Below, one piece after another: positions 2,318 through 33,746 of a stretch of DNA of 64,000 nt. The stretch covers positions 1,170,417 to 1,234,416 of the forward strand of contig OZ241380.1 of assembly GCA_965200765.1 (NCBI GenBank). Direction: 5' to 3'. The notes under the pieces are model-generated. The model saw nothing but the letters and a program-made list of their open reading frames with translations. It searched no databases and was not told the origin of the DNA. Both the position numbers and the translations under genes were made by a program. How positions within the stretch are numbered: the stretch's first letter is position 1; each line of letters starts with the position of its first letter. This stretch comes from Arenicellales bacterium. GTDB taxonomy: Bacteria; Pseudomonadota; Gammaproteobacteria; Arenicellales; JAJDZL01.

Positions 2318-3769
2318 ATGCCTGTAGATTTTGAAATTCATAGATTGCTGCCGGAACTGATTATCAGTTTCATGGCCTGTGTCATCCTGATCGTTGATCA
2401 AACGAAACTGAAAGAAATTCGAGGTTGGAGTTTGCCGTATATTTTGGCAAGCGCAACACTTCTTGGCATTGCAATCGCGTTGCCAGGCAATTTCTCCCTG
2501 GATAGCGCGGTGGTTCTCAATGGCATGTATGTGGACGATCTGTTGTCTCGTCTCATCAAGTTTGCGATTTGTCTATTGACCTTGTTCGTTTTTGTGTACT
2601 CCTACTCCTACTCGAATAGCAGAGGGCTTCGAAAGGGCGAGTACTATGTTCTTGGTTTACTCGGCGTGGTTGGCATGATGACAATGGCATCGGCCGGGCA
2701 CTTGCTGGTACTGTATTTGGGATTGGAATTGATGTCGCTGTGCTTGTACGCAATGGTAGCGTTTCAGCGCGATTCTGCACAGGCAACCGAAGCCGCGATG
2801 AAGTATTTTGTTCTTGGTGCGATTGCTTCGGGCTGTTTGTTGTATGGCATGTCAATTCTCTATGGAATTACGGGTTCACTTCATATATCTGCGGTTCAGG
2901 AAGCAGTATCCGGAATGTCGCCAGACAATGCAGCACTGATTTTCGCATTGGTGTTTGTCATTGTTGCACTGGCATTCAAGCTGGGTGCTGCACCATTTCA
3001 TATGTGGGTGCCGGATGTTTACCATGGATCTCCAACATCAACAACCCTCTATCTGGGCACTGCGCCCAAGATTGCAGCTTTTGCCCTGGTGATGCGATTA
3101 CTAGTTGATGGATTGGACAACCTGCAACCGGTTTGGCAGGACATGCTGATCGTGATTGCATTGCTGTCCATCGTTGTTGGAAATGTCATTGCAATATCAC
3201 AGACAAACCTCAAGCGTATGCTTGCATATTCGACAATCGCACACATGGGGTACATGCTTCTCGGAATATTGAGCGGCAGTCAGGAAGGCTATGCTGCTTC
3301 GTTGTTCTACATCCTTGTGTATTCAACCATGAGTTTGGGGGCGTTCGGCATCATCGCGCTTTCGGCGAGAAAAGATAGTGAATCCGATTTGATTGAAGAT
3401 TTTTCGGGCTTGAATTCCAGAAATCCGTGGCTGGCGTTTTTGATGTTGCTATTGATGTTTTCACTGGCAGGGGTGCCACCTACGGTGGGCTTCTATGCCA
3501 AGTTGTCAGTAATTCAGGCACTGATTGGCGCAGGACTCGTGTGGGTTGCAGTTGTGGCAGTCATCTTTGCAGTCGTTGGCGCATACTACTATTTACGCGT
3601 GATAAAAGTGATGTATTTCGATGAGCTGACGGATGAGCGCAAGCCGTTCGATGCGGCAAATAATACAAAAATCTTGCTTGCAATCAATGCAATCGGAGTC
3701 GTTGCAATACTACCGTGGGTTGGAAATTTGCTGGAGATTTGTTCCTCGGCGATTGCGGGATTGTATTGA
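2318..3769 (+). CDS. nuoN: NADH-quinone oxidoreductase subunit N
   Basis: 483-aa polytopic membrane protein. LLPELIISFMACVILIVD..., KLGAAPFHMWVPDVYHGSPT, KRMLAYSTIAHMGYML and PPTVGFYAKL are NuoN/ND2 hallmarks. Internal and antisense ORFs (2556..2855, 2740..3108 and others) are discarded. Confidence 0.9.
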   Translation: MPVDFEIHRLLPELIISFMACVILIVDQTKLKEIRGWSLPYILASATLLGIAIALPGNFSLDSAVVLNGMYVDDLLSRLIKFAICLLTLFVFVYSYSYSNSRGLRKGEYYVLGLLGVVGMMTMASAGHLLVLYLGLELMSLCLYAMVAFQRDSAQATEAAMKYFVLGAIASGCLLYGMSILYGITGSLHISAVQEAVSGMSPDNAALIFALVFVIVALAFKLGAAPFHMWVPDVYHGSPTSTTLYLGTAPKIAAFALVMRLLVDGLDNLQPVWQDMLIVIALLSIVVGNVIAISQTNLKRMLAYSTIAHMGYMLLGILSGSQEGYAASLFYILVYSTMSLGAFGIIALSARKDSESDLIEDFSGLNSRNPWLAFLMLLLMFSLAGVPPTVGFYAKLSVIQALIGAGLVWVAVVAVIFAVVGAYYYLRVIKVMYFDELTDERKPFDAANNTKILLAINAIGVVAILPWVGNLLEICSSAIAGLY

Positions 3770-3909: not shown

Positions 3910-4359
3910 TCAAATTGCGAACTGAAAACGATTATCGAAACCAACGTGCAAATACCCTTTACAAATTACGTCTCGTCCCAGCAATCCTGAATAATTGCTG
4001 GTTGATCCTCTAAATTCAATCACAGAAAGGTTGCTAAAAATAACTATGTTTGTCTGGACGGCATTTGGTGATTCAGGACTTAATTCGCCGAACAAAACAC
4101 CAATATCGCAAACATAGGTTTGTGATTGTGCTATCCCACTAGGTGTATAAATCTCTGTTTGACTTGTTGACTTAATTTTAATACGATCTGCAACTTCACG
4201 AGAAATACTAGATAGAGTTGCTCCGGTATCAACCAGTAAATTTACAACTACCCCTTCGCTAGTATTTCCTGGGGCCGAAACCGTGGTTTGTATAATCGGG
4301 CCAATTGCCGGGTCGTATTGCTTAGAGATGATTGACATGAGAATAATGGCCGAAATCAA
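3910..4359 (-). CDS. retropepsin-like (clan AA) aspartic protease, about 140 aa
   Basis: Contains LLVDTGATLSSIS (the D-T-G-A catalytic motif) and the downstream GLLGRDVI (hydrophobic-G-x-D flap/dimer motif), the typical size and layout of single-domain bacterial retropepsins. The true start may be the second Met at 4338. It overlaps the upstream small ORF. Confidence 0.7.
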   Translation of the reverse strand: MISAIILMSIISKQYDPAIGPIIQTTVSAPGNTSEGVVVNLLVDTGATLSSISREVADRIKIKSTSQTEIYTPSGIAQSQTYVCDIGVLFGELSPESPNAVQTNIVIFSNLSVIEFRGSTSNYSGLLGRDVICKGYLHVGFDNRFQFAI

Positions 4360-5458: not shown

Positions 5459-5636
5459 GAGGGACGAATGGGGGACGAATGGGGGACGAATGGGGGACGA
5501 ATGGGGGACGAATGGGGGACGAATGGGGGACGAATGGGGGACGAATGGGGGACGAATGGGGGACGAATGGGGGACGAATGGGGGACGAATGGGGGACGAA
5601 TGGGGGACGAATGGGGGACGAATGGGGGACGAATGG
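5459..5636. repeat. perfect tandem minisatellite, 16 copies of the 11-bp unit GGGGGACGAAT
   Basis: ACGAAT recurs exactly every 11 nt from 5464 to 5629 (16 occurrences), and the first unit is slightly degenerate. Because 11 is not a multiple of 3, all frames show the same 11-aa periodic pseudo-peptide (GDEWGTNGGRM) in the ORF track. Confidence 0.95.
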
Positions 5637-5693: not shown

Positions 5694-7171
5694 CAGCAAT
5701 TCTCATTTTAAAAAATAAGTGAATAAATACAACAAGATAGGAGACTTGATCTTTTGGATTGATGGTGATATAACTTGCCGCCATGAATCCGATGGTGGAT
5801 ATTTTGATTGGCGAGATGCGCCGATGCGTGGAACAGCTGGAGGATCCGAGCCGCGGCCGGAACACGCAGTATCGCTTCAGCGACATTGCCATGGCGGCCT
5901 TTTCGGTGTTCTTCATGCAGTCGCCGTCGTTTCTGTCGCACCAGCGGCGAATGGCTCAAAGCCGCGATGGCGACAGCTGTGCGGCCTCGTTGTTCGGGAT
6001 GGCTCGGATTCCGTGCGACAACCACATTCGCCAAAGTCTGGACGGGATTTCGCCGGAGTCGTTCTACGCTGTGCTTGACGCGGCACTGGCGGTGCTGCGA
6101 CAAAAGCCTGGAGGATTGAAGTCGTTTCGCCGGCTGGGCGGGCGATGCCTGATCGCGTTGGACGGCACTGAGTTTCATCGCTCCACCAAGGTGCATTGCG
6201 AGCTGTGCAGCACTCGAACCAGCAGTAGCACTGGCGAGATTCAGTATCTTCACGCAGTACTTTCGGCCACGCTGGTGGACCCCGGCCACAACCGCGTGGT
6301 GCCGTTGCGGCCGCAGTTCATTGAGCCACAAGACGATGCATCCAAGCAGGACTGCGAATTCAACGCGCTGAAACGATGGCTGGATGGCAATGCGGCCAAA
6401 TACCAAGCCCTCCGGCCGATCTATCTCGGCGACGCCCTGCACGCCAGCCAGCCGATTTGCCAAGCCATTGTCGAGCAGCATGGTGCAGACTTCATCTTCA
6501 CCGCCAAGAAAACCAAGCTTTCCACTTTGTACGAATACCATCAAGGCATCCAGCTGGAAAAGTTGCATATACAGGCGCGAAATGCGCGGCGACAGAAGGA
6601 AACCCGAATCTACCAGTGGTTCAACGACGTGCCAATCCGGGACGGCGACGAGGCGATGCGCGTCAACTGGATGGCACTGCAAATCCATCGCAACGGACGC
6701 AAAACCTACGAATGCCACTTCATCACCTCCATCCCGGTCACGCGAAACAACGTCAAGCAACTGCTTGATTGCGCACGAAGCCGATGGAAAATCGAAAACG
6801 AATCCTTCAACGAACTCAAGAACAACGGATACCACCTCGAACACAACTTCGGACACGGCCAGAAAGGCTTGACCAACGTGCTGCTGGTGCTCAACTTCAT
6901 CGCTTTCGCCATCCACACCGTCTGCGACGAGATGTGCCGGCTCTGGCAGAAAGCCCGGAAAAAACTCGCTGCCCGACGCGACTTCTTCACCGACTTGGCC
7001 GTGCTGCCCAAGTACCTGTACTTCGATAACTGGGAGTCACTGCTGAAGAAGCTGGTGCAAGGCCGACCGCCTTGGCCACCCTCGATTCTTCCAAATCCTT
7101 GTATATAATCGTTTTTTTCACTTCATTCAGGAGGTGACAATTTCACAAACCATTTAAAATGAGAATTGCTG
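5694..7171 (+). mobile_element. intact insertion sequence (1478 bp), IS4-superfamily DDE type; exact family not assigned
   Basis: Perfect 19-bp terminal inverted repeats: CAGCAATTCTCATTTTAAA at 5694-5712 and its reverse complement at 7153-7171. They bracket a single 441-aa transposase ORF. The interior is much more GC-rich than the flanks. No flanking direct target duplication is seen (left ..TTGAACCAG, right ACGTTCCAT..). Confidence 0.85.
5783..7108 (+). CDS. DDE transposase (DDE_Tnp_1 / IS4-like)
   Basis: 441 aa. LIALDGTEF, the YLGDALHAS region, and the C-terminal ARSRWKIENESFNELKNNGYHLEHNFGHG (the Y-x2-R-x3-E-x6-K-type signature of IS4-like transposases). The antisense ORF 5708..6916 and nested ORFs are discarded. 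Confidence 0.9.
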   Translation: MNPMVDILIGEMRRCVEQLEDPSRGRNTQYRFSDIAMAAFSVFFMQSPSFLSHQRRMAQSRDGDSCAASLFGMARIPCDNHIRQSLDGISPESFYAVLDAALAVLRQKPGGLKSFRRLGGRCLIALDGTEFHRSTKVHCELCSTRTSSSTGEIQYLHAVLSATLVDPGHNRVVPLRPQFIEPQDDASKQDCEFNALKRWLDGNAAKYQALRPIYLGDALHASQPICQAIVEQHGADFIFTAKKTKLSTLYEYHQGIQLEKLHIQARNARRQKETRIYQWFNDVPIRDGDEAMRVNWMALQIHRNGRKTYECHFITSIPVTRNNVKQLLDCARSRWKIENESFNELKNNGYHLEHNFGHGQKGLTNVLLVLNFIAFAIHTVCDEMCRLWQKARKKLAARRDFFTDLAVLPKYLYFDNWESLLKKLVQGRPPWPPSILPNPCI

Positions 7172-7283
7172 ACGTTCCATTTGAATGATGGGATCGTATG
7201 CGTGAAGTTCTTAACATTTTCAGGCATGTCTCCAAGTGTCGAATCACTATTCGTCAGTGCCACATTTCGTTTACCTGCATTGG

Positions 7284-7649
7284 TCAAATCAGCGTATCAA
7301 TTTTACGCAACACGCCTATCAACTTGGAAAGCTGTTGTGCCGAAATCTTGCCCTTGTCAGTGCCTATCAAGCAGACCGCTACGAACCTTTTGGCAGTAGC
7401 AAAGCAAGCAGGCTCGAAAACCGTCACGTCTGTCGACGAAACTTGCCAACCGCACTGGGCGCACTCATGCAAATGACGGTGCTTCGGTTGCCAGGACTTG
7501 TCGTGACCGCACTTCGGGTTGACCAATCTGTTTTTCCAGAGATGCTGGTTCAATTCTTCCGGACAAGCCGGCCGAGTTGAATACCTCTGTGTCCATTCAA
7601 AATTTCCAGAATTCTGCTGTATTTGAAATTTGCTCGCCAGCATGCTCAA
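7284..7649 (-). pseudogene. IS1595-family (ISXO2-like) transposase, N-terminal fragment (zinc-ribbon/HTH part only)
   Basis: ...NPKCGHDKSWQPKHRHLHECAQCGWQVSSTDVTVFE...KGKISAQQLSKLIGV follows the IS1595 N-terminal layout: C-x2-C ... C-x2-C zinc ribbon, then 'S.T.GT.F', then 'KKGISA.QL.R.LGV'. No DDE domain follows. The fragment is cut at 7171/7172 by the IS right end. Confidence 0.6.
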
Positions 7650-7750
7650 TCACGTGGTTACGATGTATTACAATGCAAACCTTTGCAATAGTGTGCCCAA
7701 TGCAATCCAATTTGGTGCTGCAAATGGAATTTGTCAATCCTGGAGGAACG

Positions 7751-7777
7751 TTCATAGTGAATTGATTTCACTATGAA
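7751..7777. promoter_or_regulatory. perfect palindrome (11-bp arms, 5-nt spacer) followed by T5: operator or weak intrinsic terminator/insulator
   Basis: TTCATAGTGAA-ttgat-TTCACTATGAA, then ATTTTTG. An identical copy sits at 22537-22563. Confidence 0.6.
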
Positions 7778-7789
7778 TTTTTGATTGAT

Positions 7790-7800
7790 GGGGGGGGGGG
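7790..7800 (+). repeat. homopolymeric G11 tract, promoter-proximal (candidate transcriptional phase-variation tract)
   Basis: 11 consecutive G located between TTGATT (7781-7786) and tgaaattcattcaat, about 45 nt upstream of a conserved TATAAT. The same G11 tract is found at 22574-22584. Confidence 0.8.
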
Positions 7801-7821
7801 TGAAATTCATTCAATCGCGAA

Positions 7822-7851
7822 TGAATTTTGCATGCCCGGATGGTTTATAAT
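7822..7851 (+). promoter_or_regulatory. candidate promoter of giant gene 1 (TGAATT-N18-TATAAT)
   Basis: A consensus -10 TATAAT at 7846-7851 is conserved in copy 2 (22630-22635). The -35-like TGAATT (copy 2: TCAATT) is weak. Confidence 0.35.
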
Positions 7852-8013
7852 AATTGATGATTCATTGGTCATTCGAAGCTGGGGTAGTTTCAGTAGTTTG
7901 TTGTAAAAATATTTTCTGGTACAAGTTGATGAAATTGATGTTGAAGCTGATTGGAACAATCGCTTGGCTTTGCAGTCGAAAGTGTTCTGTTGCTTTGGCG
8001 AAAAAATTAGCGA

Positions 8014-8024
8014 GGGGGGGGGGG
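8014..8024 (+). repeat. homopolymeric G11 tract inside the 5' leader/signal-peptide region of giant gene 1 (candidate translational phase-variation tract)
   Basis: 11 G. TAG 8008-8010 closes the giant frame just 5' of the tract. The ATG-initiated leader frame (7857 or 7929) crosses the tract in another frame and stops at 8129. G10 or G13 would fuse leader and giant ORF. Confidence 0.85.
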
Positions 8025-8118
8025 TGCATTCACTTGTATATCCGAAAGCCCAGTTCGCCGGCTCTCACTTGCCAAGCACATTACCTGCTGGCTACTGGTA
8101 GCGACAATATCAATATGC

Positions 8119-11100
8119 ATGCTGCCTGATGCTAATGCGGAAGGACGTGGCTTTACCAGTCCATCGGGAATTAGTGGAACTACAATTGGTGAGGGGCAAT
8201 TCGACACTGGTTCAGTTGCCGCGAAGTTTGTTGTTAAAGATACAGCTGGGTTTTGGAGTGGTTGGCAAAACTCTTATGTTCGGCTCCTAAATGCTCCCTC
8301 TGGTCTCACAATTGTTAATAGCCGAACATACCAGAATTCTACGCTTGGTTGCAATACGGGTAGCCCACGAGAATGTGTTGAAATAGACTTGGGCTGGTCT
8401 GCCACTGCCGATGTCTCATCGGATACAACAGTTACCGTTCAGGTTGTAGGTAATGGGTTTAATGCTGGCAGGCAATTCGGAGCCTGGTTTACCGTAGGCA
8501 CCTTCACGATCAAAGCGGATGTCGAGGAGCTACAGGTAAGCACCCCCACCAGCAGCAGCACGGTCACGGAGGCGGGCAGCAAGTCGGGGTTCACTGTACG
8601 GCTAGGGAAGGCACCGACGGCGAAAGTGACTGTCAATGTCTCTAGCAGCGACACCTCCGAGGGTTCTGTGTCGCCGGGCGAGTTGGTCTTCACGAGCGAC
8701 GACTACAATACTACGCAGTCGGTGACAGTAACGGGTGTCGATGACAGCATATACGACGGCAACAAAACTTGGAACGTGGTGCTAAACCCGTCGTCGACAG
8801 ATACCGGTTACAACGCTTTATCCAACGTGAATGTGGGGATGACCACCACCGACGACGAAGCTGCGCCTACTTTTTCGATCGACTCGCCGAGCGTGACAGA
8901 GGGCGACAGCGGCTCGGTGAATCTGACATTTACGGTTACGCTGAGTGCGGCGAGCGCATTGCAGCACAAGGTGAACTACGCCGATGCGGGCACCGGCACG
9001 GCGACGTCGGGGACCGACTACACGGCGCTTGCCGCCAGCAGCACGCTGACGTTTGCAGCGGGTGAGACGAGCAAGACGATTACGGTGCAGGTGACGGGCG
9101 ATACTGCAGTGGAGGCGAACGAAACGGTGGTGATCAACCTGAGCAATGCGACGGGCGGCGCCGGCATTTCGACGGCGAGCGGCACCGGTACGATCACGGA
9201 CGACGATTTGAAATTTTCGATCGACTCGCCGAGCGTGACGGAAGGCGACAGCGGCTCGGCGAACCTGGTGTTCACGGTGACGCTGAATGCGTCGGTTTCG
9301 ACGCAGCACACGGTTGACTTCGCCGATGCGGGTACGGGCACGGCAACTTCGGGGACCGACTACACGACTATTCCGAACGGCACGCTGACGTTTGCCGCGA
9401 ATGAGACCAGCAAGACGATTACGGTATCGGTGACGGGCGATACGGCGAACGAAGGGAACGAGACGGTTGTGATCTCGCTGAGCAATGCGACGGCCGGTGC
9501 AGGCATCGGAACAGCGAGCGGCACCGGAACAATCATAGACAACGACCTTACATTTTCAATCAACTCGCCGAGCGTGACGGAGGGCGACAGCGGCTCGGTG
9601 AATCTGACGTTCACAGTGACGCTGAGTGCGTCGGTCTCGTCGCCGCAAACGGTCGACTACGCCGATGCAGGAAGCGGCACGGCGACTTCGGGGACCGACT
9701 ACACGACTATTCCGAACGGCACGCTGACGTTTGCGGCGAACGAGACCAGCAAGACGATTGCAGTTTCGGTGACGGGCGACACGTCGAACGAGGGGAACGA
9801 GACGGTGGTGATCGAGCTGAGCAATGCGACAACCAGCATTTCGACGGCGCGCGGCACCGGCACGATAACGGACAACGATCTGGTATTTTCGATCGACTCG
9901 CCGAGCGTGACGGAAGGCGACAGCAGCTCGGTGAATCTGATATTCACAGTGACGCTGAGTGCGTCGGTCTCGTCGACGCACACGGTCGTCTACGCCGATG
10001 CAGGCACCGGTACGGCGACTTCGGGGACCGACTACACGAGCATTTCGGGCGGCACGCTGACATTTGCGGCGAATGAGACCAGCAAGACGATTACAGTATC
10101 GGTGACGGGCGACACGCTGGACGAGGGGACCGGCGAGACCGTGGTGATTTCGCTGAGCAATGCGACGACCGGCATTTCGACCGCGAGCGGCACCGGCACA
10201 ATCACGGACAACGATCCGAAATTTTCGATCAACTCGCCGAGCGTGACTGAAGGCGACGGCAGCTCAGTGAACCTGGTGTTCACAGTGACACTGAGTGCGT
10301 CGAGCACGTCTCAGTACACGGTTGACTATGCCGATGCGGGTAGCGGCACGGCGACTTCAGGGACCGACTACACGTCGGTCACCGGCAGCACGCTGACGTT
10401 TGCACCGGGGGACACGAGCAAGACAATTACGGTATCGGTGACAGGGGACACAATTGGAGAGCCGAGCGAGACAGTGGTGATCGAGCTGAGCAATGCGACG
10501 ACTGGCATTTCGACATCAAGCGGCACCGGTACGATCAGGGACAACGACCTGGTATTTTCGATCGACTCGCCGAGCGTGACGGAAGGCGACAGCGGCTCGG
10601 CGAACCTGGTGTTCACGGTGACGCTGAGTGTGACGAGCGCATCGCAGCACACGGTGGACTACGCCGACGCAGGCACCGGGACAGCGATGTCAGGGACCGA
10701 CTACACGTCAATCTCCGGCGGCACGCTGACGTTTGCACCGGGGGACACGAGCAAGACAGTTGCGGTATCGGTGAGGGGCGATACGCTGAATGAGGGGAAC
10801 GAGACGGTGGTGATTTCGCTGAGCAATGCGACGACTGGCATTTCGACATCAAGCGGCACCGGTACGATCAGGGACAACGACCTGGTGTTTTCGATCGACT
10901 CGCCGAGCGTGACTGAAGGCGACAGCAACTCGGTGAATCTGGTGTTCACCGTGACGCTGAATGCTTCGAGCACGTCGCCGCAAACGGTCGACTACGCCGA
11001 TGCAGGCAGCGGAACAGCGACTTCGGGAACCGACTACGCGTCGGTCACCGGCAGCACGCTGACGTTTGCAGCGAATGAAACCAGCAAGACGATCACGGTA

Positions 11101-14100
11101 TCGGTGACGGGCGATACGGCGAACGAAGGAAACGAGACGGTGGCGATCACGCTGAGCAATGCGTCGACCGGCATTTCAACGGCGAGCGGCACCGGTACGA
11201 TCATCGACAACGACCTGACATTTTCAATCGACTCGCCGAGCGTGACTGAAGGCGACAGCAGCACTGTGAATCTGACATTCACAGTAACGCTGAATGCGTC
11301 CAGCACGTCGCCGCACACGGTGGACTACGCCGATGCCGGGACCGGAACCGCGACTTCGGGGACCGACTACACGGCTGTTACTGCCAACACACTGACGTTT
11401 GCGCCCGGAGTGACGACCCAGACGATTACGGTGTCGGTGACGGGCGACACGGTCGACGAAGGACATGAGACGGTGGCGATCACGCTGAGCAATGCGACGA
11501 CCGGCATTTCGACCGCGAGCGGCACCGGCACGATCACCGACGACGACCCGAAATTCTCGATCAATTCTCCAACCGCGACGGAGGGCGACAGCAGCTCGGT
11601 GAACCTGACGTTTACAGTGACGCTGAGTGCGTCGAGCACGTCGCCGTACACGGTCGACTATGCCGATGCAGGGACCGGGACAGCGACTTCGGGGACTGAC
11701 TACACGGCTGTTACTGCCAGCACGCTGACGTTTGCGGCGGGGGAAACGAGCAAGACAATTACGGTGTCGGTGACGGGCGACACGGCGGACGAGGGAACCG
11801 GCGAGACAGTGGTGATTTCGCTGAGCAATGCATCGTCGGGCACGGCCATTGCGACGGCGAGCGGCACCGGGACCATAACGGACAACGATCCGAAATTCTC
11901 GATCAACTCGCCAACTGCGACAGAAGGCGACAGCAGCTCGGCGAGCCTGGTGTTCACCGTTACGCTGAGTGCTGCGGGTGCGTCGCCGTACACGGTCGAC
12001 TACGCCCAAACGGGCGGCACGGCAACTTCGGGGACCGACTACGCGGCGGTCGCCGCCGACACGCTGACGTTCGCGGCGGGGACCACGAGCCAGACGATCA
12101 CGGTGCCGGTGACCGGCGACACGCTGGACGAGTCGAACGAGACGGTGGTGCTCACGCTGAGCAATGCGTCGTCGGGCACGGCGATTTCGACGGCGACCGG
12201 CACCGGGACCATAACGGACGACGACCCGAAATTCTCGATCGACTCGCCGAGCGTGACTGAAGGCGACAGCGGCCAAGCGAACTTGATCTTCACAGTGACA
12301 CTGAGCGCTTCGAGCACGTCGCAGCTTACAGTCGACTACGCCCAAACGGGCGGCACGGCGACGTCGGGAACCGACTACGCCGCGGTCACCGCCGGCACGC
12401 TGACATTTGCGGCGAGCGAGACGACCAAGACGATTACAGTATTGGCGACGGGCGATACCGCGGACGAGTCGAACGAGACGGTGGCGCTCACACTGAGCAA
12501 TGCATCGGCCGGCACCGGAATCGCGACTTCGACCGGCACGGGCACGATCCGGGACGACGATCCGAAATTTTCGATCAACTCGCCGAGCGTGACAGAGGGA
12601 GACAGCGGCCAAGCGAGCTTGACGTTCACGGTGACACTGAGCGCTTCGAGCACGTCGCAGCTGACGGTGGACTACGCTCAAACAGGCGGCACGGCGACCT
12701 CGGGGACCGACTACACGGCGGTCGCCGGCAGCACGCTGACGTTTCCGGCGAACAGCACGACCCAGACGATTACAGTATTGGTGACAGGCGACACCGCGGA
12801 CGAGTCGAACGAGACGGTGGTGCTCACGCTCAGCAATGCGTCGGCCGGCACCGGAATCGCGACTTCGACCGGCACGGGCACGATCCGGGACGACGACCCG
12901 AAATTCTCGATCAATTCGCCGAGCGTGACAGAGGGAGACAGCGGCCAAGCGAGCTTGACGTTCACGGTGACACTGAGCGCTTCGAGCACCTCGCAGCTGA
13001 CGGTGGACTACGCCCAGACGGGCGGCACGGCGACTTCGGGGACCGACTACGCGGCGGTCACCGCCGACACGCTGACGTTTGCGCCGGGAACCACGACCCG
13101 GACAGTTGCGGTATCGGTAACGGGAGACACGCTGGACGAGTCGAACGAGACGGTGGTGCTCACGCTGAGCAATGCGACGGCCGGCACGGGCATTTCGACG
13201 GCGACCGGCACCGGGACCATAACGGACGACGATCCGAAATTCTCGATCGACTCGCCGAGCGTGACGGAAGGCGACAGCAGCCCGGTGAATCTGGTGTTCA
13301 CCGTGACACTGAGCGCTTCGAGCACGACGCAGCTCACAGTGGACTACGCCCAAACAGGCGGCACCGCGACTTCAGGGACCGACTACACGGCTGTTGCCGC
13401 CAGCACGCTGACGTTTGCACCGGGGGACACGAGCCAAACGATTACGGTGTCGGTAACGGGAGATACGACTGGAGAGGGGAACGAAACGGTGGAGATCACG
13501 CTGAGCAACGCCTCGGCCGGCACGGGAATCGCGACCGCGACCGGCACCGGCACGATCAGGGACAACGACCTGGCATTCTCGATCGACTCGCCGAGCGTGA
13601 CGGAGGGCGACAGCAATTCGGCGAGCCTGGTGTTCACCGTGACGCTGAGTGCGTCGAGCACGTCGCAGCACACGGTCGACTACGCCGATGCAGGAAGCGG
13701 CACGGCGACGTCGGGGACCGACTATGCGTCGATTGCCGGCAGCACGCTGACGTTCGCCGCGGGGGAGACGAGCAAGACCTTCACAGTATCGGTGACGGGC
13801 GATACGCTGAACGAGGGGAACGAGACGATCGTGATTTCGCTGAGCAATGCGACAACCGGCATTGCGACGGCCAGCGGCACCGGGACGATCGTGGACAACG
13901 ATCTGGTGTTTTCGATCGACTCGCCGAGCGTAGCGGAAGGCGACAGCAGTTCGGTGACCATGACGTTCACAGTGACGCTAAGCGCGTCAGCCTCGTCGCC
14001 GCACACGGTGGACTACGCCGACGCAGGTAGCGGGACGGCGACTTCGGGGACCGATTACACGGCAATCGCCGGCGGCACGCTGACGTTTGCGGCGGGGGTC

Positions 14101-17100
14101 ACGAGCAGGACGATTACAGTATCGGTGACGGGCGATACGGCGATCGAGGGGAATGAGACGATCGTGATTTCGCTGAGCAATGCGACGACCGGCATTGCGA
14201 CGGCCAGCGGCACCGGCACGATCAGAGACGACGACCTGGTATTCTCGATCGACTCGCCGAGCGTGACAGAAGGCGACAGCGGCTCGGCGAGCCTGGTGTT
14301 CACCGTTTCGCTGAGTACGGCGAGCGCCTCGCCGCACACGGTTGACTACGCCGACGCAGGCAGCGGGACGGCGAGTTCCGGGACCGACTACACGGCGGTC
14401 GCCGCCGGCACGCTGACGTTCGCGGCGAACGAGACCAGCAGGACAATAACGGTATCGGTGCGGGGCGATACGCTGAACGAAGGGAACGAGACGGTGGTGC
14501 TCACGCTGAGCAATGCGTCGGCGGGCACGGCGATTGCGACGGCCAGCGGCACCGGCACGATCAGAGACGACGATCTGGTATTTTCGATCGACTCGCCGAG
14601 CGTGACCGAAGGCGACAGCGGGTCGGTGAACCTGACGTTCACCGTGACGCTGAATGCGTCGGCCTCGTCGACGCAGACAGTGGACTACGCCGATGCGGGC
14701 ACCGGCACGGCGACGTCGGGGACCGACTACACGGCGGTCGCCGGCGGCACGCTGACGTTTGCGGCGGGCACCACGAGCCAGACGATTGCAGTGTCGGTGA
14801 CGGGCGACACGACTCAGGAGGGGAACGAGACGGTGGTGCTCGAGCTGAGCAATGCGACGACCGGCATTTCGACGGCCAGCGGCACCGGCACGATCACGGA
14901 CAACGATCTGGTATTTTCGATCGACTCGCCGAGCGCGGCGGAAGGCGACAGCGGCTCTGCGAACCTGACATTCACAGTGACGCTGAGTGCGTCGGCGTCG
15001 TCGACGCACACAGTGGACTACGCCCAAACAGGCGGCACGGCGACTTCGGGGACCGACTACACGGCGGTCGCCGGCGGCACGCTGACGTTTGCAGCAGGGG
15101 TCACGACCCAGACGATTGCGGTGTCGGTGACAGGCGATACGGCGGACGAAGGAAACGAGACGGTGGTAATCATGCTGAGCAATGCATCGACCGGCATTTC
15201 GACCGCGAGCGGCACCGGGACGATCACGGACGACGACCCGAAATTCTCGATCAACTCGCCGAGCGTGGCGGAAGGCGACAGCAGCACGGCGAACCTGGAG
15301 TTCACGGTGACACTGAGCGGGACGAGGTCGAGCTCGTCGCCGCTGTCGGTTGACTACGCCAGTTCGGACGGAACGGCGACAGCAGGCACTGACTACACTG
15401 CTGTTTCCGGCACGCTGACGTTTGCGTCGGGTGTGACAAGCCGGACAGTTGCGGTGTCGGTGACGGGCGACACGACGGACGAGTCGAACGAGACGGTGGT
15501 GCTCACGCTGAGCAATGCATCGGCGGGCACGGGGATTTCGACGGCGACCGGCACCGGCACGATCCGGGACGACGACCCGAATTTCTCGATCAACTCGCCG
15601 AGCGTTGTGGAAGGCGACAGCGGGCCGGTGAATCTGGTATTCACCGTTACGCTGAGCGCGTCTGCTTCGTCGCCGTACACGGTCGACTATGCCGATGCGG
15701 GGACCGGGACAGCGACTTCGGGAACCGACTACACAGCAGTCACCGGCAGCACGCTAACGTTTGCGGCGGGGGAAACGAGCAAGACAATTACAGTGTCGGT
15801 GACAGGCGACACAGTGGACGAGTCGAACGAGACGGTGGCGATCACTTTGAGCAATGCGTCGTCGGGCACGGCGATTTCGACGGCGACCGGCACCGGCACG
15901 ATCAGGGACGACGATCCGAAATTCTCGATCAACTCGCCGAGCGTGACGGAAGGCGACAGCAGCTCGGTCAACCTGGTGTTCACGGTGACACTGAGCGCTT
16001 CAAGCACGTCGCAGCTGACGGTCGACTACGCGCAGACGGGCGGCACGGCGACCTCGGGGACCGACTACGCGGCGGTCACCGCCGGCACGCTGACGTTTAC
16101 GCCGGGGACCACAACCCGGACGATTGCGGTGTCGGTGACGGGCGACACCGCGGACGAGTCGAACGAGACGGTGGTGCTCACGCTGAGCAATGCGACGGCG
16201 GGCGCGGGCATTTCGACGGCGACCGGCACCGGGACGATCATGGACGACGATCCGAAATTTTCGATCGGCAATGCGAGCGTGGCGGAGGGCGACAGCGGTT
16301 CGGCGAACCTGGTGTTCACCGTTACGCTGAGTGCTTCAAGCACATCGCAGCTGACGGTCGACTACGCGCAGACGGGCGGCACTGCGACGTCGGGGACCGA
16401 CTACACGGCGGTCGCCGCCGGCACGCTGACGTTTCCGGCGAACAGCACGACCCGGACGATTACGGTGCTGGCGACGGGCGACATGCTGGACGAGGCGAAT
16501 GAGACGGTGGTGCTCACGCTGAGCAATGCGACGTCGGGCGCGGGTATTTCTACAGCGACCGGCACCGGCACGATCCGGGACGACGACCCGAAATTCTCGA
16601 TCAACTCGCCGACGGCGACGGAAGCCGACAGCAATTCGGTGAACCTGGTGTTCACGGTGACACTGAGCGCATCAAGCTCGTCGCAGTTGACGGTGGACTA
16701 CGCTCAGACGGGCGGCACGGCGACGTCGGGAACCGACTACGCAGCGGTCGCCGCCGGCACGCTGACGTTTGCGGCCGGGACGACGAGCCGGACGATCACG
16801 GTATCGGTGACGGGCGACACGGCGAACGAGGTGAACGAGACGGTGATCATCACGCTGAGCAATGCGACGTCCGGCGCGGGCATTGGGACGGCGGTCGGCA
16901 CGGGCACGATCACGGACAACGACACGCCCGGCTTTTCAATCAATTCGCCGAGCGTGGCGGAAGGCGACAGCAGCACGACGAACCTGGTGTTCACAGTGAC
17001 GCTGAGTCCGGCGCCGGCGACTGCGGCGACGGTGAACTGGGCCGAAGGTACCGGGGGCACGGCGACGTCGGGGACCGACTACACCGCGATTGCGGGCGGC

Positions 17101-20100
17101 ACGCTGACGTTTTCGGCGGGGACCGCGACCCGGACGATTACGGTATCAGTGACAGGGGACACGACGCACGAAGCGGACGAGACGGTGGTGATCACGCTGA
17201 GCAATGCGTCGACGGGCACGAACATTTCGACGGCGAGCGGCACCGGCACCATCACCAACGACGATTCAGGCCTTTCGATCGACTCGCCGAGCGTGACGGA
17301 GGGCGACAGCGGGTCGGCGAACCTGGTGTTCACGGTGACGCTGAGTCCGGCGTCGTCGTCGCAGGTGACGGTGAACTACGCCCGCACGGGCGGCACCGCG
17401 ACGTCGGGCACCGACTTCACGGCGCTGGCCGCCAGCACCACGCTGACATTTGCGGCGAACGAAACAAGCAAGACAATCGCGGTGTCGGTGACGGGCGATA
17501 CGATCAACGAGGCGAACGAGACAGTGATTGTCACGCTGAGCAGCGCCTCGGGCGCGGACATCGTGACGGCCAGCGGCACCGGCACGATCACGGACGACGA
17601 CACGCCCAGCTTTTCGATCAACTCGCCGAGCGTGGTGGAGGGCGACAGCAGCACGGCGAACCTGGAGTTCACAGTGACGCTGAGTCCGGCCAGCTACCAG
17701 GCTACGACAGTGGACTATGCGACTGCAACTGCAGGCACAGCGACGGCGGGGACCGACTTCACGGCGATCTCGGCGACCACATTGACGTTTGCGGCGGGGG
17801 ATACGAGCAAGACGTTCATGGTGTCGGTGACGGGCGACACGACTGACGAGGGTGCGGGCGAGACGGTGGTGGCTGCACTGAGCGATGCGACCGGCAATGC
17901 AGAGATCGGGACATCGAGCGGCACCGGCACGATTACGGACGACGACCCGAAATTTTCGATCGGCAATGCGAGCGCGACGGAGGGCGACAGCGGTTCGGTG
18001 AACATGACATTCACAGTGACGCTGAATTCTGCGGGCAATTCGCAGTACACGGTCGACTACGCCAGTACGGACGGCACGGCGACTGCGGGAACCGACTACA
18101 CGGCGGTCTCGGGAACGCTGACGTTTGCGGCGGGGACCACGAGCCGTACATTGACAGTATCGGTGACGGGGGACGCGGCGAACGAGGCGAACGAGACATT
18201 GACGGTCACGCTGAGCAATCCGTCGGTAGGCACGGCGATTGCGACGGCGACCGGCACCGGCACCATCACGGACAACGATACGCCGGGCTTTTCGATCGAC
18301 TCGCCGAGCGTGGCGGAAGGCGACAGCAGCACGACGAGCCTGACGTTCACGGTGACGCTGAGTCCGGCGCCGGCAACCCAGGCGACGGTGAACTGGGCCG
18401 AAGGTACCGGGGGCACGGCGACGTCGGGTACCGACTACACAGCGATTACAGGCGGCACGCTGACGTTTTCGGCGGGGACCGCGACCCAGACGATTACGGT
18501 ATCAGTGACAGGGGACACGTCGCACGAAGCGGACGAGACGGTGGTGCTCACGCTGAGCAATGCGTCGAGCGGCACGAACATCACGACGGCGACCGGCACC
18601 GGCACCATCACCAATGACGATCCGGGCCTTTCGATCGACTCGCCGACGGTGACGGAGGGCGACAGCGGATCGGTGGACCTGGTGTTCACAGTAACGATGA
18701 GCCCGGCATCGTCGTCTCAGGTGACGGTGAACTACGCCCGCAGCGGCGGCACGGCGACGTCGGGAACCGACTTCACGGCGCTGGCCGCCAGCAACACGCT
18801 GACGTTTGCGGCGAACGAGACGAGCAAGACGATCACGGTGTCGGTGACGGGCGACACGGTGAACGAGCCAGACGAGACGGTGATCGTCACGCTGAGCAGC
18901 GCATCGGGTGCGGACATCGTGACAGCCAGCGGCACGGGTACGATCACGGACAACGACACGCCGAACTTCTCAATTGATTCGCCGAGCGTGGCGGAAGGCG
19001 ACAGCAGCACGACGAACCTGACGTTCACGGTGACGCTGAGTCCGGCGAGCTACCAGCCGGTGACAGTGGACTACGCGCAGACCGGCGGCACGGCGACCTC
19101 GGGGACCGACTATACGGCGGTCGCGGCCGGCATGCTGTCGTTTGCAGCAGGTGCTACGAGCCAGACGATCACGGTATCGGTGACGGGCGACACGATGTAC
19201 GAAGCGAGCGAGACGGTGGTGCTCACGCTGAGCAATGCGTCGTCGGGCACGAACATAGCGGCGGCGACTGGCACCGGCACCATCGCCAACGACGACCAGG
19301 GACTGCTGATTGATTCGCCGAGCGTGGTCGAGGGCGACAGCGGTACGGTGAACCTGGCGTTTACGGTGACGCTGGAGCCGGCAGCTGCGACGCAGGTGAC
19401 GGTGAACTATGCGGATGCAGGCGGCGGCACGGCGACCTCGGGGACCGACTACGCGGCAGTCGGCGGCACGCTGACGTTTTCCGCCGGGGAGACGAGCAAG
19501 ACGATTGCGGTATCGGTGACCGGCGACACGGCGGACGAGCCGGACGAGACGGTGGTGATTGCGCTGAGCAATGCGTCGGGCGCGAGCATCGTAACGGCGC
19601 GCGGCACCGGGACGATCGTGGACAACGATGTGCCCGGCTTTTCGATTGATTCGACAAGCGCGGCGGAAGGCGACGACGAGGCGAGCAGCCTGACGTTCAC
19701 GGTGACGCTGAGCCCGGCAAGCTACAGGCAGGTGTCGGTGAACTACGCCGATGCCGGCACCGGCACGGCGACGTCGGGGAGCGACTATGCGGCTTTTGGC
19801 GGCACGCTGACATTCTCGGCAGGGGAGACCAGCAAGACGATTGCAGTGTCGGTGACGGACGATGCGCTGGACGAGCCGGACGAGACGGTGGTGGTTGTGC
19901 TGAGCCATGCGTCGTCGGGCACGAGCATTGCGACGGCGAGCGGCACGGGTACGATCACAGACAACGACATCCCCGGCTTTTCGATCGACTCGCCGAGCGT
20001 TGTGGAAGGCGACAGCGGTTCGACCGTTCTGACGTTCACGGTTTCGCTGAATCCGGCGAGCCATCAGCCGGCCACGGTGCACTACGCCGATGCGGGTACT

Positions 20101-22125: not shown

Positions 22126-22428
22126 GCAGGAAAGAATCAACGCAGAGATATCCAGCGCTTTTGCCGGCAATTTCCGTATACCGCGCACAGCTGTGCAACT
22201 CGCATGTCCAGCACCTGTAGCAAAACTCTATGATCGCACTGGGAGCATGCGTGCAAACGACGGTGCTTCAGTTGCCAGAACTTGTCGTGACCGCACTTGG
22301 GGCGGATGAATCCGTATTTCCAGCGACTCCGGTTCAACTCTTCCAGACAAGCCGGCCGAGTTGAATACCTCTGTGTCCATTCAAAAATTGCCAGAATTCT
22401 GCTGGATTTGAAATTTGCTCGCCAGCAT
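22126..22428 (-). pseudogene. IS1595-family transposase N-terminal fragment, copy 2 (frameshifted)
   Basis: Reverse ATG at 22428 gives MLASKFQIQQNSGNF*. After a frameshift it continues as ..RPKCGHDKFWQLKHRRLHACSQC.. (track ORF 22137..22337). It is homologous to 7284..7649. Confidence 0.6.
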
Positions 22429-22573: not shown

Positions 22574-22584
22574 GGGGGGGGGGG
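22574..22584 (+). repeat. homopolymeric G11 tract, promoter-proximal, copy 2
   Basis: 11 G. The sequence between TTGATT and the tract is 2 nt shorter here than in copy 1 ('a' versus 'gat'). Confidence 0.8.
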
Positions 22585-22734
22585 TGAAATTCATTCAATC
22601 AAGAATCAATTCTGGTTGCTTGAATGGTTTATAATAATCAATGATTCATTGGTCATTTGAAGCTGGGGTAGTTTCAGTATTTTGTTGCAAAAATATTTTC
22701 AGGTACAAGTTGATGAAATTGATGTTGAAGCTGA

Positions 22735-25700
22735 TTGAACCAATTGCTTGGCTTTGCAGTCGAAAGAGATTTGTTGCATTGGCACATAAAAATAGCGAGG
22801 GGGGGGGGGGGCAAGAATACTTGTATATTCGAAAGCTCTGTTCGCCAGTTTGCGCTTGCCCGGTACATTGCCAGTTCGCTGCTGGTATTGACAATATCAG
22901 TATGCATGCTGTCTGATGCTGATGCGGTTAATCTTGGCTTTAAAAGTCCGTATAGTGGAAATAGTATTTTTGCAGACCAATTAGCCGGCGGCGCGACGTT
23001 TGAGATTCGCGATAATTCACACGGGTTTGACACCCCGAATCTTAATAATTATCGGCTCCAAAATGCTCCCTCTGGCCTCTCAATTTCTAGTGTGACTGTC
23101 GACGCTAGTGACGATGCTCACTTGACTATGAGCTGGACTGGCACCAGCAGAACTGTCGCGATGGATACATTAGTTGCCATTCAAGTCCACAGGAATGGGT
23201 TTATTAGTGGATCAAGCTTAGCCGCTGGCTGGCATGACAGAGGCTCCTTCACAATCAACCCGACGCCCAAGGGGCTTGTCACAAGCACCCCTACCAACAG
23301 CAGCACGGTCACGGAGGCAGGCACCCAGTCGACGTTCACAGTGAGGCTAAGGGCGGCACCGTCGGCCAATGTGACAGTCGCTGTTTCCAGCGGCGACACA
23401 ACCGAGGGCAGTGTGTCGCCGAACACGCTAACCTTCACGACCCAGAACTACGGCACTGCGCAGACGGTGACAGTAACGGGTGCCGATGATAATATACAGG
23501 ACGGCAGCGTGAGCTGGAATGTGGTGCTCAATCCGGCCTCAAGTGGGGACAGCACGTACAACGGCTTGTCCAACGTGAATGTGGCAATGACCACCAGCGA
23601 CGACGAAGGTTCGCCCGCCTTTTCGATCGGTAGTGCGAGCGTGACGGAGGGCGACAGCGGCTCTGCGAACTTGACATTCACGGTTTCGATGAGTCCGGAG
23701 AGCACGTCGCAGTATACGGTGAACTACGCACAGACGGGCGGCACGGCGACTTCGGGGACCGACTACACGGCGGTTACCAGTAGCACGCTTACGTTTGCGG
23801 CGGGGGTGACGACCCAGACAATTACGGTGTCGGTGACGGGGGACGCGGTGGCCGAGGGGAACGAAACGGTGGTGCTCACGCTGAGCAGTGCGTCGACGGG
23901 TTCGACCATCTCGACGGCGACCGGCACTGGCACGATTGTGGACAACGACCTGACATTTTCGATCAATTCGCCGAGCGTGGTCGAGGGCGACAGCAGCTCG
24001 GTGAACCTGGTGTTCACGGTGACACTGAGTGCGTCGAGCACGTCGCAGCATACGGTCGACTACGCGCAGACGGGCGGCACAGCGACTTCGGGGACCGACT
24101 ACACGGCGGTTACTGCCAATACGCTGACGTTTACTGCGGGAACCACGACCCAGACGATCACGGTGTCGGTGACGGGAGACACGGTGGATGAAGCGGACGA
24201 GACGGTGGTGTTCACTTTGAGCAATGCGACGACCGGCATTTCGACAGGAAGCAGCATCGTTACGACGGCGAGCGGCACCGGCACGATAAGGGACGACGAT
24301 CCGAAATTTTCGATCGACTCGCCTACGGTGACGGAAGGCAACAGCAGCTCTGTCAATCTGGTATTCACGGTGACGCTGAGCGCTTCGAGCACGTCGCAGC
24401 TCACGGTCGACTACGCCAGTTCGGACGGCACGGCGACTGCGGGCGCCGACTACACGGCGGTCTCCGGGACACTGACGTTTGCGGCGGGGACCACGAGCCG
24501 TACATTTACAGTTTCGGTGACGGGGGACACGGCGAACGAGGCGAACGAGACATTGACGGTCACGCTGAGCAATCCGTCGGCAGGCACGGGGATTATGACG
24601 GCGACTGGCACCGGCACCATTACGGACAACGACACGCCCGGCTTTTCGATCAACTCGCCGAGCGTGGCGGAAGGCGACAGCAGCACAACGAGCCTGACGT
24701 TCACAGTTTCGCTGAATCCGGCGCCAGCAGCTGCGGCGACGGTGAACTGGGCCGTTACGGGTGGTACGGCGACGTCGGGGACTGACTTCACAGCCACTTC
24801 GGGCGGCATGCTGTCGTTTGCTGCGACTGAAACCAGCAAGACATTTACAGTGACGGTGACCGGCGACACGACGCATGAGGCGGACGAGACTGTAGTGGTC
24901 ACACTGAGCAGTGCGTCAACGGGCACGAACATTGCGACGGCGACCGGCACGGGCACGATCACCAACGATGATCCGGGTCTTTCGATCGACTCGCCGAGCG
25001 TGACGGAAGGCGACAGTGACTCGGTGAACCTAGTGTTCACGGTGACGATGAGTCCGTCATCATCGTCTCAGGTGACGGTGAACTACGCCCGTTCCGGCGG
25101 CACGGCGACCTCGGGCACCGATTTCACGGCGCTTGCCGCCAGCACCACGCTGACGTTTGCGGCGAACGAGACGAGCAAGACGATCACAGTGTCGGTGACG
25201 GGCGATACGGCGAACGAGGCGGACGAGACGGTGATCATCACGCTGAGCAGCGCTTCGGGTGCAGACATCGTGACAGCAAGCGGCACGGGCACGATCACGG
25301 ACAACGACACGCCGAACTTTACGATCGACTCGCCGAGCGTGGTCGAGGGCGACAGCGGTTCGGTGAATCTGGAGTTCACAGTGACACTGAGTCCGGCCAG
25401 CTACCAGCCGGTGACGGTGGACTACGCCCAGACCGGCGGCACGGCGACGTCGGGGACTGATTACACGGCGCTTGCCGCCGGCATGCTGTCATTTGCGGCG
25501 GGCGACACGAGCAAGACGATCACGGTATCGGTGACGGGCGACACGGTGTACGAGGCGAGCGAGACGGTGGTACTGACGCTGAGCAACGCAACGGCGGGCA
25601 CGAATATTGCGACGGCGAGCGGCACCGGCACGATCACCAACGATGATCCGGGCCTTTCGATAGACTCGCCGAGTGTGGTGGAGGGCGACAGCGGCGCGGT

Positions 25701-32948: not shown

Positions 32949-33746
32949 ATGATGCCCAGGTCAAGTAATGGTACTTCCTACAACTTGATTGGAAGGGCAA
33001 ACGCTGATAGTGTAGTCCTGATTCATGGACTCGGTGCCAATCAATGCATGTGGCAGGATTTTTTGCCGGAATTGTCGAAACAGTATCAAGTCTTGACGTA
33101 TGATTTGTATGGGCATGGTGAAAGCGTTGCACCGCCGAAAACACCGTCCCTGAAGTTGTTTGCGACTCAGCTCAGGAAATTACTGACTGAACTAGGTATT
33201 AATCGCTGTAGCATTGTCGGTTTTTCACTTGGCGGGATGATCAATCGCAGGTTTGCTATGGATTATCCGGATATGGTGTCTGGACTGGTGATCCTGAATT
33301 CTTCCCATGAGCGGGACCCGGAGGAACAGAAAATCATTGAAGAGCGAGTTGCCCAGACCTCTGCCGGTGGGCCCGCAGGCACTCTGGAGACCTCCATGAA
33401 AAGATGGTTCACCCCTGAATTCCTGGCGGCAAATTCCGAAATTGTCAAGAATATGCGTAGTTGGATACTGAGCAATGACCCGGATACCTATACACAATGT
33501 CGTATAGTGCTGGCCCATGGTGTAAAGGAGTTGATTCGACCTAGCCCACCCATTGAGTGTCCTGCACTAGTGATGACTTGCGAAAATGATAGCGGTAGTA
33601 CGCCATCCATGACATATGGAATTGCATCTGAAATTTCAGGTGCAACAGCGATTGTAGTACCGCATCTTCAACATGTTGGATTGATGGAGCGACCTTCTGA
33701 ATTTCTGAAGCCGATTCTGTCATTTCTGGAGGAGATTTCCGAATGA
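32949..33746 (+). CDS. alpha/beta-fold hydrolase
   Basis: VVLIHGLGAN...YDLYGHGES...IVGFSLGGMI (nucleophile elbow G-x-S-x-G) and a C-terminal H in VVPHLQHV. ATG at 32949. Confidence 0.8.
   Translation: MMPRSSNGTSYNLIGRANADSVVLIHGLGANQCMWQDFLPELSKQYQVLTYDLYGHGESVAPPKTPSLKLFATQLRKLLTELGINRCSIVGFSLGGMINRRFAMDYPDMVSGLVILNSSHERDPEEQKIIEERVAQTSAGGPAGTLETSMKRWFTPEFLAANSEIVKNMRSWILSNDPDTYTQCRIVLAHGVKELIRPSPPIECPALVMTCENDSGSTPSMTYGIASEISGATAIVVPHLQHVGLMERPSEFLKPILSFLEEISE

Follow-up and report, generated by a model that had tools for sequence, protein, structure and literature searches.

How is a giant surface protein made when the start codons ahead of its signal peptide lie in another reading frame? 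This question is raised by gene 1, the first of two giant paralogous genes in the window, the 64,000-nucleotide stretch of Arenicellales DNA (contig OZ241380.1) analysed here. A run of 11 G residues (tract 2, G11; 8014–8024) lies between the leader codons of gene 1 and the rest of its signal peptide, and the two sides are out of frame as assembled. Sequence comparisons suggest, with a probability of about 0.62, that tract 2 acts as a slipped-strand translational ON/OFF switch of the giant surface-protein gene. Gene 1 is predicted to be OFF in the sequenced majority and one G deletion away from ON. A sequence-only reading of this DNA had proposed ON/OFF switching of a giant adhesin; the comparative data support a slipped-strand switch, and the protein is at present a putative adhesin only. 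All features described below are on the + strand unless noted otherwise.

Reading frames and export signal of gene 1

The frame relations described by the sequence-only reading hold throughout. Tract 2 consists of 11 G, and a TAG in the giant frame (8008–8010) lies directly 5' of it, shutting that frame at G11. The giant frame has no stop from 8011 on. Codons 8026–8118 (AFTCISESPVRRLSLAKHITCWLLVATISIC) are open, lead into MLPDANA|EG, and can be aligned with gene 2, as had been stated. The first in-frame ATG, GTG, or TTG past the tract is ATG 8119, 94 nucleotides (nt) after the tract end, in keeping with the claim that none precedes the hydrophobic core. The giant open reading frame (ORF) that begins at this ATG encodes 4,668 amino acids (aa; 8119–22125). 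An ORF at 7854–8129 (TTG 7854, ATG 7857, ATG 7929) passes through the tract in another frame and, as assembled, ends at a TGA (8127–8129), giving a 66-aa product from ATG 7929. ATG 7857 is not conserved and is placed no later than the predicted start of transcription, so translation probably begins at ATG 7929 instead.

In silico editing of the tract supports the proposed fusion of the leader to the giant ORF. Translation from ATG 7929 yields 4,731 aa at G10 and 4,732 aa at G13, and just 56–67 aa at G8, G9, G11, G12, G14, and G15 (66 aa at G11, 57 aa at G12). Such runs are far from chance in the window, which has no G or C runs of 7–10 nt and four G runs of 11–13 nt; the G11 pattern has six matches, compared with 0.01 expected from shuffles.

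In frame (G10 or G13, not G11), tract 2 codes for three to four glycines between the halves of a long signal peptide. The first part of the leader (7929–8013; ATG 7929 ... MKLMLKLIGTIAWLCSRKCSVALAKKLA) encodes a hydrophobic N-terminal segment and then basic residues. The second part, in the giant frame (8026–8139; AFTCISESPVRRLSLAKHITCWLLVATISICMLPDANA), encodes basic residues, a hydrophobic core, and A-N-A. By hydropathy and inspection, the fused form has the basic residues, 17-residue core (residues ~50–66), and A-N-A of the N-terminal Sec signal characteristic of type V proteins. The signal-peptide claim agrees with this profile, as does the claim that the ATG 8119 product lacks a signal peptide, since that product has no hydrophobic segment. 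No Pfam family, ESPR (PF13018) included, matched the fused N-termini of gene 1 and its relative L004 at E ≤ 10.

The need for an export signal follows from the predicted protein. Both giant genes encode an N-terminal domain, tens of Calx-beta repeats, and a C-terminal domain of ~360 aa; the gene 1 protein has ~40 Calx-beta repeats and a predicted C-terminal outer-membrane beta-barrel. Searches of Pfam and NCBIfam with the leader and with the N- and C-terminal domains returned no match, and the C-terminal domain of the window protein had no sequence match in the PDB either. Homologues of the C-terminal domain with 30–37% identity carry the autotransporter beta-domain PF03797. An AlphaFold model of the C-terminal domain, built from 18 sequences, is an all-beta barrel of ~18 strands (predicted local distance difference test, 80), which Foldseek matched to outer-membrane barrels generally, including BrkA and EspP. 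Classical PF03797 translocators have 12 strands. Given the predicted C-terminal barrel, the protein would have to cross the inner membrane and would therefore require a signal peptide.

Automatic gene calls in three loci of closely related strains (L108, L109, and L110) begin at an ATG or TTG inside or past the hydrophobic core, at equivalents of position 8119. As a result, database proteins of the giant family lack a signal peptide, and predicted proteins that start at an 8119-type ATG would be mis-sorted as cytoplasmic for that reason.

The proposed mechanism is as follows. Tract 2 would be hypermutable, with its length altered by slipped-strand mispairing during DNA replication, and would divide the signal peptide in two within the 5' coding region. 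The part before the tract would supply the start, a first hydrophobic stretch, and basic residues; the part after it would add more basic residues, the true hydrophobic core, and an A-N-A cleavage site. A tract of G10 or G13 would fuse the two parts, so that a 4,731-aa precursor could be made and exported. At G11, ribosomes from ATG 7929 would halt at 8129 after 66 codons, and the remaining ATG 8119 would give a protein without an export signal. The length of a second G run farther upstream (tract 1) would set how far upstream sites lie from the core promoter and thereby tune transcription. With the same cassette ahead of gene 2 and of several paralogues in related genomes, each cell lineage would vary which giant surface proteins it displays.

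Tract 2 in related loci and the competing explanations

Tract 2 was compared across 13 loci, including window genes 1 and 2, from the window and four independent assemblies. L003 and L004, on a chromosome-level metagenome-assembled genome of an Arenicellales bacterium (OZ241916.1), were found with a leader 21-mer search. L001, L002, L112, L113, and L114 were retrieved through protein searches with the N-terminal domain. Exact-protein look-ups of neighbouring genes led to L108–L111, which lie on two contigs of a single sample, both syntenic with the window. These contigs are 98–99.5% identical to the window in pairwise comparison and, on that basis, are two further strains beside it. For L108 and L109, overall identity to the window is 97.7–98.4%, with 5–8 indels per 20 kb; in the contig alignments, indels between strains are rare and mostly outside homopolymers. 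Most contigs bear long-read-style names (e.g., ctgN_27.15x_l and ptg000354c), the technology being judged from the names. L113 is from a scaffold-named, probably short-read assembly, and L112 is from a GC-rich relative (hifiasm-style contig of 2.84 Mb) with a leader of a different kind. The leader 21-mer had zero matches in Joint Genome Institute metagenomes, and a promoter-block pattern had 102 matches, none followed by a G run and all due to chance. Look-up of a small upstream ORF returned solely a contig already known, and short-read contigs with the neighbouring genes end inside the repeat gene, short of the leader. One candidate, L005, was discarded as a chance match inside an Acidobacteriota kinase gene.

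A poly-G tract is present at the same position in all 13 loci, directly ahead of a shared signal-peptide segment, (K/R)NTCIFES... or AFTCISES.... Its length is 11 in seven loci, 12 in three, and 10, 13, and 22 in one each. The occurrence in L113, probably a short-read assembly, and in the GC-rich relative L112 indicates that the tract is real and old and not an artefact of one technology. Two loci are in frame. L004 has the flanks of gene 1 with G10, an ATG-to-tract distance of 85 nt, and a tract-to-anchor distance of 79 nt, and reads as a single open frame (...TRGGGAFTCISE..., MKLILMLIEPVAWLCSRKSSVALANKLTRGGGAFTCISEIPVRR..., MKLILMLIEPVAWLCSRKSSVALANKLTRGGGAFTCISEIPVRRFSLARQFACSFLVATISVCMLSDASA...) from the leader ATG through at least 392 codons. 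Judged by this frame, L004 is a natural instance of the predicted ON allele. In L112, in-frame read-through from the ATG gives MAPAFLLVRMMT-G7-VKSCTP..., with seven glycines, and the gene caller took the G22 ORF as one protein (P0053). The L112 tract (3037–3058) is a single G22 at the same position, accompanied by an unrelated leader and no tract 1.

Strain differences were found for gene 2, an ORF of 1,909 aa (22735–28464). The gene 2 leader (22713–22798; MKLMLKLIEPIAWLCSRKRFVALAHKNS) is 1 nt longer than that of gene 1, so that its ON lengths would be G9, G12, and G15. In the window, gene 2 tract 2 (22799–22811) is a G13, a length that puts ATG 22713 out of frame; only weak TTG codons at 22735–22774 that lack a Shine-Dalgarno sequence are in frame. 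The same tract is G11 in L108 and L109. Apart from the tract, ~40 nt on each side are identical in L109, and one base differs in L108; the length change is one of just 5–8 indels in 20 kb. Comparison across strains, which the sequence-only reading had put forward as a check, reveals a length difference for gene 2 (G13 vs. G11) and none for gene 1, which is G11 in all three strains.

The frame of the leader relative to the main ORF is also variable. Of 11 independent loci, two have offset 0, six have offset 1, and three have offset 2, and indels of lengths not divisible by three are found both before and after tract 2. As the offset takes all three values, no recoding site is fixed, and a frame-resetting repeat fits. 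A fixed +1 frameshift site, considered when four of the first five leaders had offset 1, was dropped; the 2/6/3 distribution over 11 loci is not different from random. We infer DNA-level switching at a high rate from these comparisons. The locus has several hallmarks of contingency loci: a homopolymer of at least ~8–9 nt in the 5' reading frame, a one-unit change that converts a full-length into a truncated product or back, tract lengths that differ among strains and alleles between conserved flanks, and in-frame alleles (L004, G10; L112, G22).

The same offsets bear on RNA-level recoding, in which the DNA would be stable and RNA polymerase slippage on the C11 template, or tRNA-Gly slippage on GGG, would give low constitutive expression. 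Homopolymer tracts beyond the length of the RNA:DNA hybrid keep full pairing on realignment, and G11 is longer than the hybrid, so a realigned transcript would stay fully paired. The 14-kb ORF is intact in three strains, all called G11, and offset +1 is common to six of the 11 independent loci. However, the presence of offsets 0, 1, and 2 among relatives leaves no fixed geometry, and the frame relation conserved among homologues that marks programmed frameshifting or transcriptional slippage is not seen. Strains and paralogues also show real differences in DNA length, and tract 1, of like composition and length, lies upstream of the -10 box, where RNA effects are not expected. No stimulatory structure was found: the folding energy of 7900–8134 is no better than that of shuffles (z = +0.51), covariation gives no support to the alignment fold of seven leaders, its term being positive, and region 7000–8400 had no Rfam match at E ≤ 1. 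RNA-level recoding is thus an unlikely account. GGAGGTGGAGG is an example of a tract version locked at G11 with the frame kept out.

Two complementarities surround tract 2. The start of the leader ORF, ATTGATGTTG (7934–7943), is complementary over 10 nt to the conserved CAATATCAAT (8105–8114) in the signal-peptide core region, and TGCTTGGC (7963–7970) is complementary to GCCAAGCA (8072–8079). Together they predict a long stem around the tract. The stem was rejected as an RNA element; six of seven copies retain it, by unchanged or G-U pairs only, it is broken in L002, and neither covariation nor energy supports it.

Several observations weigh against the switch. Gene 1 tract 2 is G11 in the window, in L110 (which has an identical leader), and in L111, and its consensus state seems stable at this depth. 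Similarly, tract 1 is G11 in all six strain-level copies, with no polymorphism at that depth. Of the 24 tract calls in cassette loci, 16 are exactly 11, a mode that could reflect length homeostasis or be technical. The upstream ATG is in frame in only two of 11 independent loci, and some loci have start codons shortly past the tract. The coding signal of the leader is weak, and the leader matched no known signal-peptide family. ATG 7929 has no Shine-Dalgarno sequence, as is the case for most genes of the window. Finally, homopolymer calls in assemblies may be 1 nt wrong, and a consensus conceals mixtures.

The last point leads to the possibility of a miscall. If the true or dominant length were G10, gene 1 would be a plain in-frame ORF in most cells, with a tract that may still be mutable. 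Most contigs are long-read-style by name, and calls one G too long would put gene 1, window gene 2, L001, and L003 in frame. There is also a precedent in Bifidobacterium breve, where an annotated G11 is a 37:60 mixture of G11 and G12 (PMC9187656). Against this, the same G11 was obtained independently in the window, L110 (27x), and L111 (14x), and if all calls were uniformly 1 nt too long, L004 would be OFF, and L108, L109, L002, and L114 would still not be in frame. Other inter-strain indels are rare and mostly non-homopolymeric. The assembly was not capped at 11 either. A technical ceiling had been suspected when ten, and then twelve, tracts of ERZ25070167 were all G11, but both tracts of L114, which comes from that assembly, are G12. 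These data make a miscall improbable.

The start codons past the tract are the basis of another alternative, in which the tract belongs to the 5' untranslated region (UTR), serving as a spacer or a G-rich stretch for ribosome binding, the MKL... leader forms a small upstream ORF of its own, and the giant protein starts after the tract. Such starts occur in L114 (G12-C-ATG; +1), L113 (G12-ATTC-TTG; +4), L001 (G11-TATTC-ATG; +5), and L002 (GTG; +33), and in L114 the leader stop overlaps the start (ATGA). A G run could pair with the anti-Shine-Dalgarno sequence via one G-U pair. In these four loci the tract can lie in the 5' UTR and could serve as a G-rich ribosome-binding stretch, and their lineages may have escaped frame control. 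However, gene 1, gene 2, L003, L004, L111, and L112 have no in-frame ATG, GTG, or TTG between the tract and the hydrophobic core. Because the distance from the tract to a conserved ATA codon varies (10, 13, 17, and 20 nt), a non-canonical start at fixed spacing is unlikely, and L004 and L112 are true in-frame fusions. As a general explanation, a 5'-UTR element is decidedly unlikely.

Sequence conservation on both sides of tract 2 is consistent with the translational switch. The motif ATGAAATTGAT is kept and the leader frame is open in every cassette copy, L003 has an in-frame 3-nt deletion in its leader, and leader variable sites fall 5/3/9 by codon position, with third positions enriched. All relatives keep the second half of the signal peptide, in which codons ahead of any start codon differ synonymously. 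Between the tract and the core these differences include TGT/TGC, CCA/CCT/CCG, and TTC/TTT, and in gene 1, gene 2, L003, L004, and L111 no start codon precedes the synonymously varying codons. This pattern makes the tract-to-core segment look translated.

Gene 1 could also be a recently inactivated pseudogene, with the tract a relic. None of the three strains has it in frame, and insertion sequence (IS) elements and IS fragments surround the locus. Against decay, 4,699 sense codons remain open downstream of tract 2, the ORF is kept intact in three strains that differ at 0.5–6% of sites, and the cassette with its tract is conserved across diverged relatives. A pseudogene therefore has very little probability.

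The paired-tract cassette and its surroundings

The four G runs of the window form two pairs, one ahead of each giant gene, at 7790–7800 and 8014–8024 (gene 1) and at 22574–22584 and 22799–22811 (gene 2), with ~224 nt between the members of a pair. Each pair is carried by a duplicated upstream block of ~700 bp with 86% identity between genes 1 and 2. By alignment, the two tracts together constitute a conserved cassette of ~430 bp, which was absent from the finding of the sequence-only reading.

Tract 1 is G11 in gene 1 (7790–7800) and G11 in gene 2 (22574–22584), and is G10–G12 in all nine copies of the cassette with an MKL leader. Homology among copies begins at about 7726, with a conserved upstream block (7726–7789). 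Two perfect palindromes flank tract 1 in the window. The first (7751–7777), TTCATAGTGAA-5 nt-TTCACTATGAA, is followed by a T run and may be an operator or weak terminator. The block AATTGATTTCA..TGAATTTTT is kept in all aligned copies (genes 1 and 2, L001, L003, and L004), and the hairpin is not retained in L001, L003, and L004. The second palindrome (7803–7828), AAATTCATTC-6 nt-GAATGAATTT, lies directly downstream of tract 1 and is only partly conserved in other copies.

Tract 1 is positioned 45 nt upstream of a conserved TATAAT (7846–7851; 22630–22635 in gene 2), a predicted -10 box and the sole promoter-like hexamer kept in all cassette copies. Transcription is predicted to start near 7858–7861. 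No convincing -35 element lies at 17 nt from TATAAT, and a sigma-70 consensus scan gave weak sites, no more than shuffles did. The distance from the end of tract 1 to TATAAT is 44–46 nt in seven copies, and 55 nt in L114 because of a 10-bp duplication. From its position, tract 1 probably acts on transcription. A DNA-level spacing effect would be the most economical explanation, given that the tract lies upstream of the core promoter and is similar to tract 2.

Paired tracts are mostly equal in length (10/10 in L004, 12/12 in L114, and 11/11 in seven loci) and are unequal only in window gene 2 (11/13) and L003 (11/12). This could be due to chance, a per-locus technical effect, or exchange between tracts. 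The gene 1 leader of L111 (13705–14308 of ctg393572) is a mosaic, with a 379-nt insertion inside the leader ORF that supplies a second TATAAT and a second, L003/L004-like leader start (MKLILRLVDRIARLCSRK...). Its composition suggests recombination between cassette copies.

Several mobile elements and repeats are found near the cassettes. N-terminal fragments of IS1595-type transposases (zinc-ribbon) lie divergently upstream of both cassettes, at 7284–7649 (- strand) and 22137–22337 (- strand). They are duplicated along with the cassettes in the window genome. The arrangement recurs in L114, and in L113 an intact IS1595 transposase lies downstream of the giant gene. The idea that the tract is part of an IS1595 end was rejected, as L001, L003, and L004 carry the cassette without the fragment, with a tRNA in its place in L001. 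A perfect tandem array of 16 copies of the 11-mer GGGACGAATGG (5461–5636; 100% matches) lies upstream of an IS4-type transposase gene (5783–7108). L110 has two units fewer than the window, so the array is a second length-variable repeat nearby. L110 also has an extra IS of ~1.2 kb with a DDE_3 transposase (11895–13113 of ctg394038), absent at window ~4207–4211. Farther away, at window position 35168, a one-base difference from L109 in an A run affects a thiamine-pyrophosphate enzyme gene (33743–35428). The L109 product has 517 aa, against 561 aa in the window and L108, and the cause is either a frameshift in that strain or, at 14x coverage, an assembly error.

More tentatively, the two tracts and the intervening sequence might be a self-contained "two-key" cassette, controlling the promoter and the signal-peptide frame, that has spread by duplication and recombination to a family of giant Calx-beta outer-membrane proteins in uncultured marine Arenicellales. 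This extension is possible but doubtful. If true, it would provide combinatorial surface variation comparable to the phasome of Neisseria or Campylobacter in a lineage that is not a classical pathogen, and the near-constant G11 of both tracts would be a selected set-point, not chance. In practice, the cassette (two tracts, TATAAT, and conserved leader) offers a search handle for more switches in metagenomes, and its tracts are amplicon targets for measuring ON/OFF ratios in natural samples.

Comparison with known switches

To our knowledge, nearly all documented cases of repeat-driven phase variation come from cultured, host-adapted pathogens or from a few commensals. The giant genes would represent a clean case in an uncultured marine gammaproteobacterial lineage, with proteins of up to 4,700 residues that are costly to make. 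A literature search for Arenicellales together with phase variation found no paper linking them.

The two-part signal peptide has a counterpart in layout. The ESPR (PF13018) of type V proteins likewise comprises a hydrophobic segment, a basic linker, and a core with a cleavage site. The likeness is in layout only, there being no sequence match to PF13018 at the threshold given above.

The closest documented analogue of tract 2 is the pilus switch of B. breve UCC2003, in which the sortase-pilus genes bbr_0113 and bbr_1889 undergo replication slippage at an intragenic G11/G12 tract (PMC9187656). In both systems, the tract stands between an ORF that provides the start codon and export signal and the remainder of a surface-protein gene, certain lengths fuse the two, and the downstream ORF lacks a usable start or signal of its own. 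The annotated tract length of B. breve did not match the population mixture. Unlike the Arenicellales genes, the B. breve system is Gram-positive, concerns an LPXTG pilin, places the tract past the whole signal peptide, and has one tract per gene. Furthermore, the B. breve switch was shown experimentally, whereas the evidence presented here is comparative.

Phase variation in Neisseria works mainly through G or C tracts, 9 nt or longer, located in reading frames or promoters, as in pilC (G9–20) and the autotransporter gene nalP (C9–13) (PMC5953494). Like tract 2, these are poly-G/C tracts of 9–20 nt in the 5' coding part that set the frame ON or OFF and vary in length among strains. Jonsson et al., in 1991, reportedly located the pilC tract in the signal-peptide coding region. 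The pilC and nalP systems differ in that the proteins are unrelated, the hosts are human pathogens, and no second tract is present in a shared cassette.

For tract 1, the analogues are promoter homopolymers, such as the poly-G of Treponema pallidum tpr/TprL (PMC7864442) and the poly-C of Neisseria meningitidis opc (PMC3960869). In these cases, a homopolymer in or near the promoter of an outer-membrane-protein gene sets the level of transcription. The position relative to a mapped transcription start is known for tpr and opc, whereas the start is predicted here and tract 1 lies upstream of any -35 position. Two repeats act on one gene in N. meningitidis porA, which has a promoter poly-G and a coding poly-A. 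As proposed for the giant genes, the porA repeats affect transcription and translation. Unlike those of porA, both tracts of the cassette are poly-G, of near-equal length, on the same strand, and in a cassette common to several paralogous giant genes. The proposed mechanism is of a familiar type; what is new is where it occurs, namely the host lineage, protein family, and paired-tract cassette.

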